64,000 bases of DNA from Vermamoeba vermiformis (lineage: Eukaryota), in NCBI GenBank assembly GCA_045837725.1, contig JBEWZL010000236.1:124001-188000 (forward strand), written 5' to 3'. The position numbers and the translations under genes were made by a program. Under the pieces are notes generated by a model, which ran no database searches, was not told the DNA's origin, and saw only the letters and a list, made by a program, of their open reading frames with translations. Position 1 is the stretch's first letter, and the number at the start of each line of letters is the position of its first letter. Shown one piece after another: positions 43,230 through 49,582 of the stretch.

Positions 43230-46200
43230 TTAAAGTGTGATGGTCGCGACGTCCACTTGGTCTTTGGACTTTGCTAATCGCACATTGAACACTTGACATT
43301 GTTCCTTGCCAATGCGACCATAATCAGTGAATACGCGCACGCACACGGTCGTGCCACTGGCATAGATCTGCGAGTGGAACAATTTGACGCTGATCTTGTA
43401 TGTGCCTGGCTGACCGCTCTTCAACACATATTCAATGGGACCGTAGCCAGTGGTGAAGTTGCGTGACATGAAGCCACCGTTCTTGGTCACGTTGTGCAGA
43501 CTGTAGCAAAGATCTCCGGTGGGCTCGCTGACTTGCAACTCGACGTCAGACATGTCTGTGTCCCACTGCACGCACACGCGCATGTCAAGGTCCATCGGAC
43601 ACAAGAAGCGCTTGTCCACCAACGGCTTGAGATTGAATACGAGTTCGGGATTGGAGTTTGAGAGGGCGTAGTGCATCACTCGATTGATGTCCATCAACGT
43701 CGTGATCTCAATCTGTGCAAAGCGAGCGTGCCAATTGCCCATCAAGAGCTTGTTCAACAGCGCCAGAGCCTCTTGGAACTTCTCACTGAGCCACTCATCT
43801 GCGTACTCGGGCTCCACGACCTCTTCGCCTTGTTCGAGCACAAGTTCTATCAAAACATTAGCACACATCTCCATTAATAGTCACATCGTTGTACACACCG
43901 TCATGGTGGCCTTGGTTGATGCGATGAAGGTGATCTTTGAGCTTCTTGTGCTTGATGAGTGCGTGTTGCACGATAACTTGAGCCAAGTTCCATAATGATT
44001 GGGGCTCCTCGGGGCGTAATCTGCAGCCGTTAGGTACTACCCTAATGACATTATATGTGACTTACTTCAGTACTCGTCGATAGATGTTAATGGCCGTGCT
44101 CCATAAGCCGTGTTGTTCGCACCAAAAGCCCATCACTCTGCAAATACGAATTAGAAACCGAAGACACCGCGCTATCAACTAGTTACCTTAAGTGGTGAGG
44201 ATTGTCAAGCTCGAGCTCAGCCAAGTTAGAAATGACTCGCAAGGCCAAGTCTTTGTTGCCTTGCTGTTGCAACTGCGTGGCTGCATCGAAATAGAACGAA
44301 GAGAGCTGCGAGTACTGCGCGTTCTTGTTTCTCATCTCCAAGTAACTCTGGTACGATGAGAGCGAGGACAGGTACGGTGTGTTTGGCGTCCATGTCTGCA
44401 GACAACAGTTAAGACAGTTCAATATTTGTGATTGGTCAGACTTACGATTGGCTTGATGCGATTTAATTCCACGACTTGATCGTCGAACACATTTGCTGTG
44501 TGCAGTCTGTTGTGGCGCTCGATTTTGGCCAAGTCCTTAGCTACACCATGTTATTAGTACTACATTCTTCCAGTTGATTCGCACGATGCTTACCAATTTT
44601 AGCTTGCAATAATTGTTGTCGCAAGTGGTGCCAGTTGTACATGAATGAAGGACCCTCGTTAAAGTGCTTCTCTTCGAATTCAGCCCAAGTACTTGCTTGG
44701 CGTCTTTCAAAGGTCATGGTGAGATCATTATTATATGAGAGCATTGTACTTACTCGCGCCATGCTTGCCAAGAACTGTTCGACTCAGTATTGCCGCGCAA
44801 TCGCAGCACCATATGCAAGGTAGATTCCTTCTGAATGTTGTAATCGCCCAATGTACGTCCATCTTCGAGTTGTTTGCCAGCGAAGATGATGCGAATTTGA
44901 TCTGGAGGAATGCCTTCTTTGTCTGAAATAGCTTGTTTCAGACTGTCGACGCTTGTGGTGGGGTCAAGGCCCACGGTGATTGTTTTGCCGGTCAAAGTTT
45001 TCACAAACAACTGCATACCACCACCACCACCACCACCACGACCTTCAAGAATGAGTTAATCAATACGTCGTAATTAATGGATGACCATACTTTCGTTGGA
45101 CGTTCGAATGACGGCATAGGAACTGACTCATTCTGTGCTGACAACATATCCAAGTCTGCGAAAGGATCAGAGGGCGCGTCGGTATCTTTTCGCTTCATCC
45201 CTGGGACAAAATTAGAGTTAAATCAGTCTCACCAAAAAGTGATCAAAAACTTACTTTTCTTTTTGTTCTTCCTCACGTCATTGTTTTCATCCATTTTTCT
45301 ACTTTCCTCTTCAAAAATGGCTGTACGATATTAATAATGGCAAGCGAGGTCTGTTCAACTTACCATTCTCTGCCATTACCATGTCTAAGTCGTCGAGTAA
45401 GTTGTTCAAGTCTGAAGCCTCCTCTGCTTGCCAGCGCTTCGATTCCTTCTTCTCTACTTTCTTGTCTTCTTTCTTATACCTATCTCTTGCATCCTTTTCT
45501 TTCTCTTTCATTAGCGGAGCTCTCATTAGCGGAGCGTCCATTAGCGGAGCTGGAGCGGCGAAAGAGAGTTTTTTTAGTCTTGGACTTTGTGGAGGGGAAC
45601 TTCGTCTTGATCTCTCCATAAATACATCTTCTTCGGCTTCATCGTCGTCATCGCTCAAAGCAGCTCGTCGGCTCGATAAAACAGATTGCAATGCCTGAAC
45701 TGACTCTCGTTTGGCCTTTTCCATTATGGGCGCTGCTTTGGCCTCTTCCATTATGGGTACTGCTTTACTTTGAGGCTTAGCTTTCAGCGAAAATCCAGAG
45801 GCGATGTCTTTCAATAGAGAACTAACACTTTCTGCCTGTTTAGAGATAGGTGCAGATGTTTTCTTAAAATCGACTGCCAGATCCTCAAGCTTTTCGGACC
45901 TGCTGACTAACGTGTCCAAAGCAGCTGCTCTAGGTGCAGGCATAGCAGCGCGTTGAGGTGCCATCGGCGCGACAGATGAGCGCCTAGCTGAAGAGAGTGA
46001 TGCTGTGGTTGTGGCAGGCACTGGACCAGCTCCGCTGCTCGAAGTAATTCTGCCCAAGGGTGGTGGACCTGGTGGTGGACCACCCCTGCCTGGTGATGGT
46101 GATGGAGCACCCATACCTGGTGGTGGTGGTAGTGGAGCACTCATACTAGGTTGGGCGCTAGGAGGGGGTGGAGGACCACCGCCAAACAAATCAAAGGGAG

Positions 46201-49200: not shown

Positions 49201-49582
49201 ATCTCCATTAATATCGACAGCATAGCCGCACATGGTAGCATCTGAGTATTTATATATGAATATAACGTAACTGACAGGTGATATGTAGGTAAGAGTTTGA
49301 TAGTGAATTTTGTTGCAATTTCAATTTTATTATTTTCACTTACCGTCAGGCATTGGGAATACCAACTGTTTATAAGAATAATTGTTAATAATTGTTAAAA
49401 TTTACTATTTTTAAATATTAATTTACCTCGCCTTCCGTTTCGTTGTCGGTTTCGTTTAAGAAAACCATTGTAACGGTCGTTTGAGCGAGAAACCCAGAGC
49501 ATGACACGTCAATTACAAGGTCCGTTAACTTGCATGGTTGTTGTGTGTTTTTGATTATCAACTCATACGCTTTGTTGCTCAT
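43230..49582 (-). CDS. VIT - vWA-like - coiled coil - [actin fragment/Pro-rich/R-SNARE half/WH2-CA/ubiquitin] - TPR - DUF2135(YfaP)-like mosaic protein
   Basis: VIT ([21 protein letters not shown]|..GYAVDING...KARIVFE); vWA-like ([20 protein letters not shown]); [15 protein letters not shown] ([22 protein letters not shown]); DUF2135 ([24 protein letters not shown]...GYGPIEY). Two internal junctions (~46330 and ~45043) are ambiguous. Confidence 0.75.

Follow-up and report, generated by a model that had tools for sequence, protein, structure and literature searches.

What is a gene of the amoeba Vermamoeba vermiformis doing with pieces of actin and ubiquitin lodged between the two halves of a scaffold that derives from bacteria? 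The stretch of DNA that we analysed, hereafter the window, comprises 64,000 nucleotides (positions 124,001 to 188,000 of the forward strand of contig JBEWZL010000236.1, assembly GCA_045837725.1). An earlier note, made from the letters alone, had described the product as a VIT-vWA-TPR-DUF2135 protein whose middle region might act as an array of baits for the effectors of intracellular pathogens. We have examined its gene structure, domains, relatives and possible function.

Gene structure and conserved platform

The sequence and its translation, together with transcript contigs X1 and X2, give a gene of 20 exons on the minus strand, encoding ~1770 aa from an ATG at 49582 to a TAA at 43232-43230, with GT-AG introns of 43-102 nt:

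43230-49582, minus: whole gene
49582-49427, 49365-49344, 49241-49177, 49119-49025, 48972-48822, 48772-48561, 48502-48307, minus: exons 1-7
48255-46967, 46909-46752, 46696-46531, 46483-45364, 45320-45255, 45200-45091 (or -45102), minus: exons 8-13
45042-44754, 44703-44594, 44540-44446, 44395-44187, 44137-44066, 44020-43899, 43846-43230, minus: exons 14-20
46326-46332, minus: frame-breaking C7 homopolymer (C8 in X2, with a G inserted behind 46325; C5 in X1, with two bases fewer)

The two contig sets come from close relatives (95-99% identical) that transcribe and splice the gene. None of the contigs covers it from end to end, and the predicted introns are skipped exactly at 13 of the 15 joints among the matches listed. 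Exon 11 follows directly on the actin exon in these contigs, and the ubiquitin exon is spliced on either side to its neighbour, which contradicts the separate transcription of the two halves that the earlier note had named as fatal to its reading. The open reading frame of the window carries one frameshift, in the C7 run, and two candidate donors (45091 or 45102) compete for the acceptor at 45042 of the ubiquitin exon, so that one could think of a pseudogene, or of separate genes fused by an assembly or gene-model artefact. We consider this highly improbable. The frameshift is probably an assembly error, because the relatives carry C8 or C5, both of which restore the frame in translation, and a second homopolymer, at 49774, lacks one base in the window that all 4 runs have, which points to undercalling in the assembly. 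Moreover, the exons are connected by spliced contigs from two runs, and homologs in at least 8 species are single open reading frames of the same length and order.

An intron within exon 11 (46454-46303) was rejected as a bridge for the frame, the X2 contig being unspliced across 45914-46483 and differing in homopolymer length. Raw RNA-seq of a 90-95% identical relative (X17/X19) covers the last exons and the ubiquitin exon only, and its ubiquitin-exon reads were discarded as support for the gene, their joint, which goes back 173, being that of polyubiquitin genes. A tblastn search revealed no second copy of the gene within the 64-kb window.

The two halves that flank the middle region form the following conserved platform:

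48561-49582, minus: VIT domain and following beta region, exons 1-6 (BLASTP to P0171; Pfam sub-threshold)
47296-48502, minus: vWA-like domain, then beta-sandwich and conserved helices up to VAWWNDE (HMMER, MIDAS columns, homolog model)
48364-48384, 48124-48141 and 48037-48054, minus: intact MIDAS, namely DASKS, DGGTN and TDG (family alignment)
43596-44773, minus: conserved C-half, with an "SW..WR" region and helical/TPR repeats (BLASTP, conserved columns, models)
43233-43595, minus: DUF2135 beta-sandwich with conserved Asp clusters and a putatively TerD-like fold (Pfam, AF2, VIA-align)

Exon 1 alone matches Pfam VIT/VIT_2 below threshold (E 0.004-0.008). The spliced N-half aligns with the Rhizamoeba protein P0171 at 38.5% identity over ~745 aa (BLASTP, E 2e-147), and P0171 itself has a VIT match of 68.4 bits in Pfam. 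No signal peptide is seen in exons 1-6. Pfam vWA gives no match on exon 8; a HMMER search retrieves 1278 homologs, with E 3e-58 to 1e-24 to family members, and the MIDAS residues (DxSxS, T, D) are present in columns that are nearly invariant across the family. A vWA fold is the probable assignment, made through these columns and through a homolog model that matches ITIH1 (6fpy; E 7e-22, 621 columns, TM 0.52 on the target). The C-half, which includes a stretch of 11 residues and RPEEPQS, aligns with all long homologs from ~residue 1350 on (BLASTP), and its helical repeats appear in predicted models. DUF2135 scores 30.4 bits against a Pfam cut-off of 22, and the C-terminal AF2 model has a pLDDT of 89.5. 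Its best VIA-align matches are the TerD structures 2qz7 (Z 9.2; rmsd 3.4 over 112 residues) and 2kxt (Z 8.4), followed by a match of 6.9; Foldseek with the same model returned no match below 1e-3. The window protein has every element of the scaffold family (VIT, vWA with MIDAS, TPR-like helices, then DUF2135), and the division into a VIT/vWA N-half and a TPR/DUF2135 C-half given in the earlier note is borne out.

VIT and DUF2135 also occur together in bacterial proteins, as had been noted. Bacterial VIT-vWA-TPR-DUF2135 proteins are found in the genomes of at least 577 species; they are ~950-1100 aa long and have signal-like N termini by eye. Their scaffold runs collinear with that of the amoeba protein (30-40% identity; P0001, P0010), and both have the nearly invariant columns of the MIDAS and of the Asp-rich C terminus. 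They are annotated as "VIT domain-containing", "DUF2135 domain-containing" or "Ca-activated chloride channel homolog". In these proteins and in short-form amoeba paralogs the two halves are separated by a disordered linker of only ~100 aa, Ala/Pro-rich in bacteria; the AF2 model of the short form P0009 (pLDDT 85.8, pTM 0.86) confines disorder to residues 686-766. Phylogenetic analysis places the 16 long forms in a single amoebozoan clade (support 99), sister to the short-linker amoeba forms (96), within the bacterial radiation; the eukaryotic proteins thus form a single clade, nested among ~1000-aa bacterial proteins. Across 80 loci no conserved neighbour of the bacterial genes emerged, the largest apparently real cluster comprising 6/80, so that the neighbourhoods give no hint at defence. 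Larger neighbour clusters (51, 15, 10 and 9 loci) were set aside as apparent antisense shadow ORFs within the gene, the one example checked of each having proved to lie inside the match on the opposite strand.

The variable middle region

Between the two halves the window protein carries ~740 aa of the following composition:

46816-47193, minus: Glu/Arg/Lys-rich coiled coil or single alpha-helix, ~110 aa, where the variable middle begins (sequence)
46531-46791, minus: actin fragment, ~residues 3-68, split by the intron 46697-46751 (Pfam, PDB actins, X2 joint)
46474-46482 and 46316-46324, minus: two NPF motifs upstream of the polyproline, too short to tell from chance (sequence)
46052-46219, minus: polyproline tracts PPPPPP, PPPPP and PPPP, with FDLFGGG between (sequence)
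45827-45925, minus: weak R-SNARE-like stretch (Pfam Synaptobrevin, sub-threshold)
45620-45820, minus: WH2-like (45773-45820), C-like (45656-45700) and acidic (45620-45655) motifs (pattern matches)
45151-45412, minus: LD-like motif of ten residues (45383-45412), Lys-rich exon and DPF motif (45151-45171; sequence only)
44789-45040, minus: Gly run (45017-45040), then ubiquitin domain (45016-44789) ending RLRGN (Pfam, alignment)

The charged coiled coil and the polyproline of the earlier note are plain from the sequence, and the Rhizamoeba proteins P0171 and P0286 have longer equivalents of the charged helix. Actin, which had been placed at residues ~1-72, is recognised by Pfam at 36.3 bits (cut-off 27) over profile positions 13-60 of 410. 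Compared with PDB actins, residues 16-67 are identical at 45/52 positions (E 3e-27), all but one of the 7 differences exchanging one hydrophobic residue for another, and the preceding exon contributes ~14 further actin-like residues. The fragment ends exactly on an exon boundary and lacks the complete four-subdomain fold with its nucleotide-binding loops. The ubiquitin domain said to end in RGN is likewise real: it fills the Pfam profile (positions 1-72 of 72, 100.4 bits), is identical to ubiquitin at 56/75 positions and retains the Ile44-side residues, but Gly76 is replaced by Asn and the protein continues in frame, so the Gly-Gly terminus of a conjugatable ubiquitin is absent.

The smaller motifs are less certain. 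Half an R-SNARE motif, claimed previously, is not established: Synaptobrevin matches at E 0.035 (14.4 bits, cut-off 26.4) over profile positions 29-60 only, a PDB sequence search with a 320-aa part of exon 11 that includes this stretch gave nothing below E 0.3, and no hydrophobic membrane anchor is seen by eye. The WH2-like and central-acidic-like motifs are pattern matches, in the same order and place as the better-defined WH2/C/acidic-Trp modules of P0171 and P0007/P0167-P0170; the WH2 fits a consensus pattern but is not matched by Pfam, and the acidic motif EEDVF ends in Phe instead of the conserved Trp. The LD-like and DPF motifs are present but too short to be distinguished from chance.

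Such a series of motifs could belong to a working actin or membrane-trafficking scaffold, in which the platform targets the protein and the disordered middle is a hub of motifs and modules that, like those of endocytic scaffolds, would bring in profilin-actin, Arp2/3, adaptors, EH-domain proteins and receptors for ubiquitin, each insert binding the normal cellular partners of its parent. We regard this as unlikely on balance. It is favoured by the two NPF motifs, the DPF motif and the internal ubiquitin with its Ile44-side residues, and opposed by the missing Pfam WH2 match and Trp, and by an actin piece of 65 residues that cannot be an actin. The relatives supply further evidence on both sides.

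Conserved flanks and exchanged inserts

The earlier note had predicted that amoebozoan VIT+DUF2135 homologs would keep their flanks and exchange host-protein fragments in the middle, and this is what the comparison reveals; the middle is not invariant. When the window protein is compared with 12 eukaryotic homologs by BLASTP, only ~residues 1-650/750 and 1350-1772 align. In an alignment of five close orthologs, identity is 60-94% in the gap-free flanks and drops to 18-50% in the middle, where gaps make up over 50% of many blocks. A piece of a core protein at or above the Pfam cut-off is found in the middle of 11/16 long forms, which are not independent, since they include three mutual close orthologs and two pairs of close relatives:

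Window protein: actin and ubiquitin
P0089, P0162: Ras and Synaptobrevin
P0165: two copies of IF5A-like_N
P0176: IBB (importin-alpha)
P0286: ubiquitin
P0287: DnaJ (J-domain)
P0290: Tubulin
P0292: Snf7
P0289, P0291: Synaptobrevin

Weaker matches in P0176 are to a syntaxin SNARE (E 1e-6), H3 residues 2-23 (E 0.017) and part of ubiquitin (E 0.003), and a further stretch, EEDDD-GFGLFD, resembles the ribosomal stalk tail (E 0.032). The remaining 5/16 have no above-threshold insert. Pelomyxa schiedti alone has three paralogs with three different inserts. It is worth noting that only fragments of well-conserved families are recognisable in this way. By eye, P0171 and P0286 also seemed to contain a stretch resembling the Hsp70 lid, but it was dropped for want of Pfam support at E up to 1.

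The earlier statement that every piece is incomplete or disabled fits the partial actin of the window protein and its ubiquitin devoid of Gly76, but elsewhere in the family some inserts look functional. The J-domain is complete with its HPD; the Rab, Rab4/11/14-like, is also complete, with its P-loop piece behind the rest in a possible circular permutation; and the synaptobrevin of P0289 has its membrane anchor, in addition to ~400 aa of membrane-spanning sequence. The polyPro-WH2-C-acidic(Trp) series is conserved and collinear in P0171 and all five of P0007/P0167-P0170, its acidic runs with Trp being found by pattern in P0007, P0168 and P0170 and by eye in P0167, P0169 and P0171, and the WH2 of relatives scoring 14-17 bits in Pfam (cut-off 23.1). 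This series would suit a trafficking scaffold, as would the many inserts that are trafficking parts (R- and Q-SNAREs, the Rab, Snf7) and the anchoring of P0289/P0291 in the membrane through the middle. On the other hand, eIF5A, the H3 tail, the importin-alpha IBB, tubulin and the stalk tail are off that theme, and one platform with unrelated sets of partners in its orthologs and paralogs is hard to square with one job.

The pattern could also be that of a neutral insertion hotspot, a tolerant disordered linker that gathers captured exons and retrocopies of highly expressed genes, which then decay without function. The linker is disordered in the model and highly indel-prone, and two bacterial proteins (P0046, P0108) carry unrelated insertions there too, by eye squalene-cyclase-like repeats. 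The actin piece stops at an exon boundary, the parent genes are abundant and conserved and so most readily recognised, and inserts are gained and lost, ubiquitin being present in the window protein and P0286 and absent from their relative P0171. Other observations speak against a neutral hotspot. The window and P0286 ubiquitins are identical at 55/76 positions (72%), and at 41/50 over residues 27-76, against 41% for their scaffolds; both keep RLRG and have lost only Gly76, the P0286 domain ending RGT. Both eIF5A copies of P0165 retain the STSKTGKHG loop, the C-terminal helix and tail of the tubulin insert are nearly unchanged by eye while its core has decayed, and every lineage has kept long open reading frames (600-1100 aa). 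We hold the neutral reading to be improbable.

A putative decoy and its relation to known systems

Based on the above data, we propose that the window protein is a putative decoy or bait display protein, a function that we put forward as a serious possibility falling just short of probable. The protein would be cytosolic and consist of a rigid platform and a display loop. The platform, inherited from bacteria, would combine the ITIH-like VIT-vWA half, with its intact metal site, and a TPR half that ends in the TerD-like DUF2135 sandwich, predicted to bind Ca, the two halves presumably packing against each other. From it would project the ~740-aa loop, in which a stiff charged helix precedes actin ~3-68, polyproline, degenerate WH2/C/acidic motifs and a ubiquitin that is probably non-cleavable; across the family the same site would present further conserved host proteins, or key peptides of them. 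A pathogen effector, toxin or viral enzyme able to recognise such a hub protein would bind, modify or cut the loop instead, and the platform would soak up the attacker or register the event, possibly because the loop loses its contact with the platform at the vWA metal site or because an actin-nucleating module is exposed.

Actin, tubulin, ubiquitin, Rab, SNAREs, the H3 tail and the ribosomal stalk tail are all targets of bacterial effectors or toxins. The excess conservation of the ubiquitin mimic (55/76, against 41% in the scaffold) may reflect selection, and we count it for a decoy. Several points weigh against it. No executioner or signalling domain is recognisable by Pfam in the window exons and the homologs scanned; several inserts look, from their sequences, as though they work rather than being disabled; and the retention of polyPro-WH2-C-acidic across a subclade would be expected of an output or working module, not of a sampled bait. 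In addition, disordered linkers evolve fast anyway, ascertainment is biased, and the five long forms without an insert have to be accommodated. With greater reserve, as a possibility that we still hold to be doubtful, we extend the decoy reading to a pan-amoebozoan family of sensors or traps that are triggered by effectors and are not NLRs, in which an ancient bacterial platform entered the amoeba cytosol and its linker became an evolving integrated-decoy array of actin, tubulin, ubiquitin, Rab, SNAREs, ESCRT-III, J-domain, eIF5A, H3 tail, IBB, stalk tail and WASP-like VCA.

Amoebae are a natural training ground for many intracellular bacteria and giant viruses, and to our knowledge almost nothing is known of how they detect effectors. 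The family is a concrete candidate for such a detector, having one platform, one insertion site and inserts that resemble a list of effector and toxin targets. If the decoy reading is true, immunity by integrated decoys arose a separate time, without NLRs and outside plants and animals; the catalogue of inserts would be a natural record of the hubs attacked by amoeba pathogens and giant viruses and could predict targets; and there would be a function to test for the uncharacterised bacterial VIT-vWA-TPR-DUF2135 proteins. In that case the bacterial ancestors may themselves be bait-and-trap proteins. If it is wrong, the repeated capture and maintenance of core-protein fragments at a single site is still striking, and one subclade may hold a new type of actin-nucleation factor.

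Our literature searches found no description of the amoeba VIT-vWA-TPR-DUF2135 architecture, nor any work on DUF2135 or on VIT+vWA+TPR in bacteria; the matches listed for integrated decoys in amoebae or Amoebozoa concern plants or unrelated topics, the only match for an inter-alpha-trypsin domain in Amoebozoa concerns the PARP family, and yfaP is given as unassigned in the passages retrieved. The parts of the protein do have known counterparts. In structure, the DUF2135 sandwich comes closest to TerD, a Ca-binding beta-sandwich of tellurite resistance, at 11-15% identity. In the homolog model, the fold of the N-half corresponds to that of ITIH1, and the VIT region matches PARP4 by sequence; both are only 12-14% identical, and neither has the TPR/DUF2135 half or the variable loop. 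WASP-family proteins have a VCA, a module of WH2, central and acidic parts, and in the relatives polyPro, LLxxIxxGxxLKK, LxxxLxxRRxxI and an acidic run with Trp follow in the same order; the WH1, SHD and WAHD1 head domains have no Pfam match in the window exons or the homologs scanned.

The alpha-2-macroglobulin bait region and the "tripwire" linkers of NLRP1/CARD8 are exposed, fast-evolving stretches that invite attack by foreign enzymes. The amoeba loop is likewise an exposed, fast-evolving stretch between structured parts, and its cleavage is putative; Pfam finds no macroglobulin, thioester or FIIND/CARD domain in the window exons and the homologs scanned, and the structure searches led to ITIH1 and TerD. 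In plant NLRs with integrated decoys (NLR-ID), pieces of host proteins targeted by pathogens are built into the receptor, vary between paralogs and reveal effector targets. NB-ARC/NACHT, LRR, TIR and CC domains have no Pfam match in the window exons and 15 homologs. What the amoeba protein shares with the plant NLR-IDs is the idea of host-protein pieces carried in one platform and differing between paralogs. It differs from them in bearing several mimics in tandem within one loop, in the bacterial origin of its scaffold, and in belonging to a different eukaryotic supergroup.

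Gene structure and transcription

The gene boundaries proposed in the earlier note stand: on the minus strand, the gene starts with the ATG at 49582 and stops with the TAA at 43232-43230 (43230-49582). Our reading of the sequence divides the gene into 20 exons, separated by short GT-AG introns (43-102 nt) with CTAAC/CTAAT-like branch sites. Four public sequencing runs were compared with the locus. Logan contigs from two of them, X1 and X2, are 95-99% identical to the window and contain at least 15 joints; predicted introns are skipped in 13 of the 15 listed, which identifies spliced RNA, the sole source of such joints. 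The contigs connect the DUF2135 end with the ubiquitin exon by way of the TPR exons, and further joints lead from ubiquitin to the WH2/acidic exon, from there to the actin exon, and from the vWA exon to the coiled-coil exon; no X1 or X2 contig covers the entire gene. The junction into the ubiquitin exon was masked in the run comparison by a repeat-masked run of Gly codons; for the exon acceptor at 45042, a strong donor (45091) is out of frame and a weak donor (45102) is in frame. The other two runs, X17 and X19, are raw RNA-seq from a 90-95% relative with coverage limited to the final exons plus the one for ubiquitin, and their ubiquitin reads were rejected as evidence for the gene because they show a head-to-tail joint typical of polyubiquitin.

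The reading frame is broken in the window at a C7 run (46326-46332), where X2 has C8 and X1 has C5, either of which restores a single continuous exon (46483-45364). An assembly undercall is the likelier cause, since the homopolymer at 49774 is likewise one base short (T4 in the window versus T5 in all four runs). This suggests systematic homopolymer undercalls in the assembly, in which other genes may have false frameshifts. An intron across 46326-46332 is ruled out by an unspliced X2 contig. That the locus is an artefact or a pseudogene strikes us as highly improbable.

The window exons were scanned with Pfam, using the curated cut-offs given for each family.

Pfam matches in exons of the gene
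Actin exon, minus strand: actin, 36.3 bits (cut-off 27)
Ubiquitin exon, minus strand: ubiquitin, 100.4 bits
Last exon, minus strand: DUF2135, 30.4 bits (cut-off 22)

Exon 1 by itself gave VIT matches below threshold, and the big exon 8 gave no Pfam match. Comparison with solved structures bears out the actin and ubiquitin pieces described in the earlier note: actin is matched over residues 16-67 (E 3e-27, 45/52 identical), with about 14 more actin-like residues in the exon upstream, where phosphate-loop residues are altered, and the ubiquitin domain is identical at 56 of 75 positions, with its differences clustered at residues 15-31 and Gly76 replaced by Asn. The charged coiled coil and polyproline tracts are plain in the sequence. 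The LD-like and DPF motifs listed alongside them are present, but are short and indistinguishable from chance, and two NPF motifs in the middle are similarly too short to separate from it. Half an R-SNARE motif, also claimed, is not established in this gene, because the 320-aa part of exon 11 whose sole Pfam match is Synaptobrevin (E 0.035) has no PDB match below E 0.3.

The scaffold family and its amoebozoan branch

With the vWA part as query, HMMER found 1278 relatives among 1.84 billion representatives, most of these relatives 950-1100 aa long with VIT, TPR and DUF2135, and the family is present in the genomes of at least 577 bacterial species from many phyla. In the three bacterial members inspected, the N-terminus is signal-like and the halves are joined by about 100 aa of low-complexity linker; no conserved neighbour genes were found at bacterial loci. 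Across 111 aligned members there is almost no variation at the MIDAS residues or at a group of C-terminal Asp/Gly positions, and the window protein has every one of them. Disorder in the AlphaFold model of the short form P0009 (Balamuthia, 1078 aa; pLDDT 85.8, pTM 0.86) is limited to residues 686-766, a hint that the two halves may make up a single body from which the linker loops out. In structure comparison, the N-half resembles inter-alpha-inhibitor heavy chain 1 (621 columns, E 7e-22). The model of the gene's last exon (pLDDT 89.5) contains a beta-sandwich that is closest to TerD proteins (Z 9.2 and 8.4), with the next rows two units lower; Foldseek on this model returned nothing below 1e-3.

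By eye, the bacterial members P0046 and P0108 have, at the linker site, repeats with RDGSWG motifs resembling the squalene-cyclase/prenyltransferase alpha/alpha-toroid, so that the insertion site would seem to be used in bacteria too. Two further regions of the window are listed here.

Other features of the window
14131-24529, minus strand: giant G+C-richer gene (G+C 0.52-0.585 versus 0.41-0.48 nearby)
54518-57302, plus strand: F-box (E 1e-11) and TerD domain (E 3e-21) in two adjacent open segments

The first, whose five long open stretches add up to no fewer than 3400 aa, has F5/8 type C, two ZZ zinc finger, SPRY and ubiquitin-conjugating (E2) domains, and resembles a giant ubiquitin enzyme of the E2 type. 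The two segments of the second may be one gene; they mark a bona fide TerD-domain gene, which lies some 5 kb away from where the gene with the TerD-like DUF2135 end begins (5' end, 49582).

Long relatives (1450-2280 aa) were gathered by length-restricted searches; those with source names are Amoebozoa, and several others have no source name. The amoebozoan relatives come from Rhizamoeba saxonica, Echinamoeba exundans, Cavostelium apophysatum, Mastigella eilhardi, Pelomyxa schiedti (three proteins), Pyxidicula operculata (one long and one short form) and Balamuthia mandrillaris (short form). BLASTP aligns the spliced window protein to long relatives at about residues 1-650/750 and 1350-1772 only; among five close orthologs, identity is 60-94% in the gap-free flanks and 18-50% in the middle, where gaps predominate. 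In a FastTree tree (40 rows, 979 columns), all 16 long forms fall in one clade (99) within the bacterial radiation, with the short amoebozoan forms as its sister group (96), and an earlier 70-row tree is consistent with this. These supports are local only, the root is a midpoint root and several rows are long-branched with odd composition, for which reasons we infer, rather than read directly from the tree, that transfer ran from bacteria to the amoebozoan clade.

Inserts in the variable middle

The earlier note predicted conserved flanks around a middle that swaps host-protein fragments, and this pattern is found among the amoebozoan long forms. When the 16 long forms were scanned with Pfam at the curated cut-offs, the middle of 11 matched a core eukaryotic family; the 16 are non-independent, including three mutual close orthologs and two further pairs of close relatives.

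Families in the middle of long forms, at or above the curated cut-off
Window protein: Actin, ubiquitin
P0089, P0162: Ras from profile position 23 on; Synaptobrevin
P0165: two IF5A-like_N
P0176: importin-alpha IBB
P0286: ubiquitin
P0287: DnaJ
P0290: Tubulin, profile positions 89-188
P0292: Snf7, profile positions 3-88
P0289, P0291: Synaptobrevin

The remaining 5 of 16 (P0007, P0168, P0170, P0171 and P0172) have no insert over the Pfam cut-off. Weaker matches are a syntaxin SNARE motif (E 1e-6), part of ubiquitin (E 0.003) and histone H3 residues 2-23 (E 0.017) in P0176, a syntaxin-7-like motif in P0172 (E 0.007) and an E2-like domain in P0287 (17.7 bits versus a cut-off of 27). An EEDDD-GFGLFD stretch of P0007, kept in 4 of 5 orthologs of its group, matches the C-terminal tail of acidic ribosomal stalk proteins (E 0.032). 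The inserts derive from at least nine different parent families, and the three Pelomyxa paralogs each have a different one.

Several inserts are rearranged or extended. The Rab-like insert of P0162 and P0089 (Mastigella, Pelomyxa) runs from about Rab residue 35-49 to the GTPase end and is trailed by the beta1/P-loop piece (GDSGVGKT), an order (G2-G3-G4-G5-G1) that would possibly make it a circularly permuted small GTPase. In P0290 (Pelomyxa), the GTPase core of the tubulin-like insert has decayed, but by eye there is almost no change in the insert's C-terminal helix or its acidic tail (EFTEAESN.NDL.SEYQQYQ). The eukaryotic P0289 and P0291 have a near-full synaptobrevin with its anchor in the middle, followed by about 400 hydrophobic, apparently multi-spanning residues, and some family members are for this reason probably integral membrane proteins.

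No homolog examined outside the window lineage has the actin piece. The ubiquitins of the window and P0286 occupy the same site, are preceded by a Gly run, have derived residues in common and both lack Gly76; ubiquitin does not occur in P0171, the nearest relative of P0286 in the tree. The two domains are identical at 55 of 76 positions (41 of 50 over residues 27-76) versus 41% over 952 columns of scaffold, identities by which the ubiquitin mimic appears to be held under tighter constraint than the platform.

Readings of the loop and known systems

We put the chance that the loop displays decoys or baits at not quite even. Under this reading, inserts would be exchanged while the platform stays fixed, their parents would be of the kind seen (mostly well-known targets of effectors or toxins), and ubiquitin would be under extra constraint, all as observed. 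It also predicts the partial inserts: actin of 65 residues, ubiquitin without Gly76, a decayed tubulin core, half of Snf7 and only the tail of H3. Against it, no executioner domain is recognisable in the proteins, and some inserts are apparently functional (a J-domain with HPD, a possibly permuted Rab and a membrane-anchored, multi-span synaptobrevin). Moreover, the insert list is biased to conserved families, the only ones that can be recognised, and disordered linkers in general evolve fast. A neutral insertion hotspot is improbable in our estimation.

A working actin/trafficking scaffold is possible, though we consider it rather unlikely. Its chief support is a conserved module found in P0171 (Rhizamoeba) and five P0007-group orthologs, in which polyproline is followed by a WH2 motif (LLxxIxxGxxLKK), LxxxLxxRRxxI and an acidic run with Trp. 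The WH2-like, central-like and acidic-like motifs reported earlier for the window keep this order in degenerate form, with Phe in place of Trp. Alternatively, the VCA-like module could provide a sensor with its output arm. The remaining weight falls to explanations outside these four.

The literature searched, mostly without subscription journals or supplements, yielded no DUF2135, no bacterial VIT domain with vWA and TPR, and no integrated decoys in amoebae or amoebozoans, the matches listed being from plants or unrelated. An inter-alpha-trypsin domain in Amoebozoa was found solely in a PARP-family survey, and one paper that mentions YfaP lists yfaP as unassigned. No counterpart of the variable host-fragment loop was found in this literature or in the families compared. 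The polyproline-WH2-LxxxLxxRRxxI-acidic(Trp) order is the layout of WASP-family VCA outputs, common to P0171 and the P0007-group orthologs and degenerate in the window. The window protein itself does not belong to the NLR, macroglobulin or WASP families; its place is in the bacterial-type VIT-vWA-TPR-DUF2135 scaffold family.
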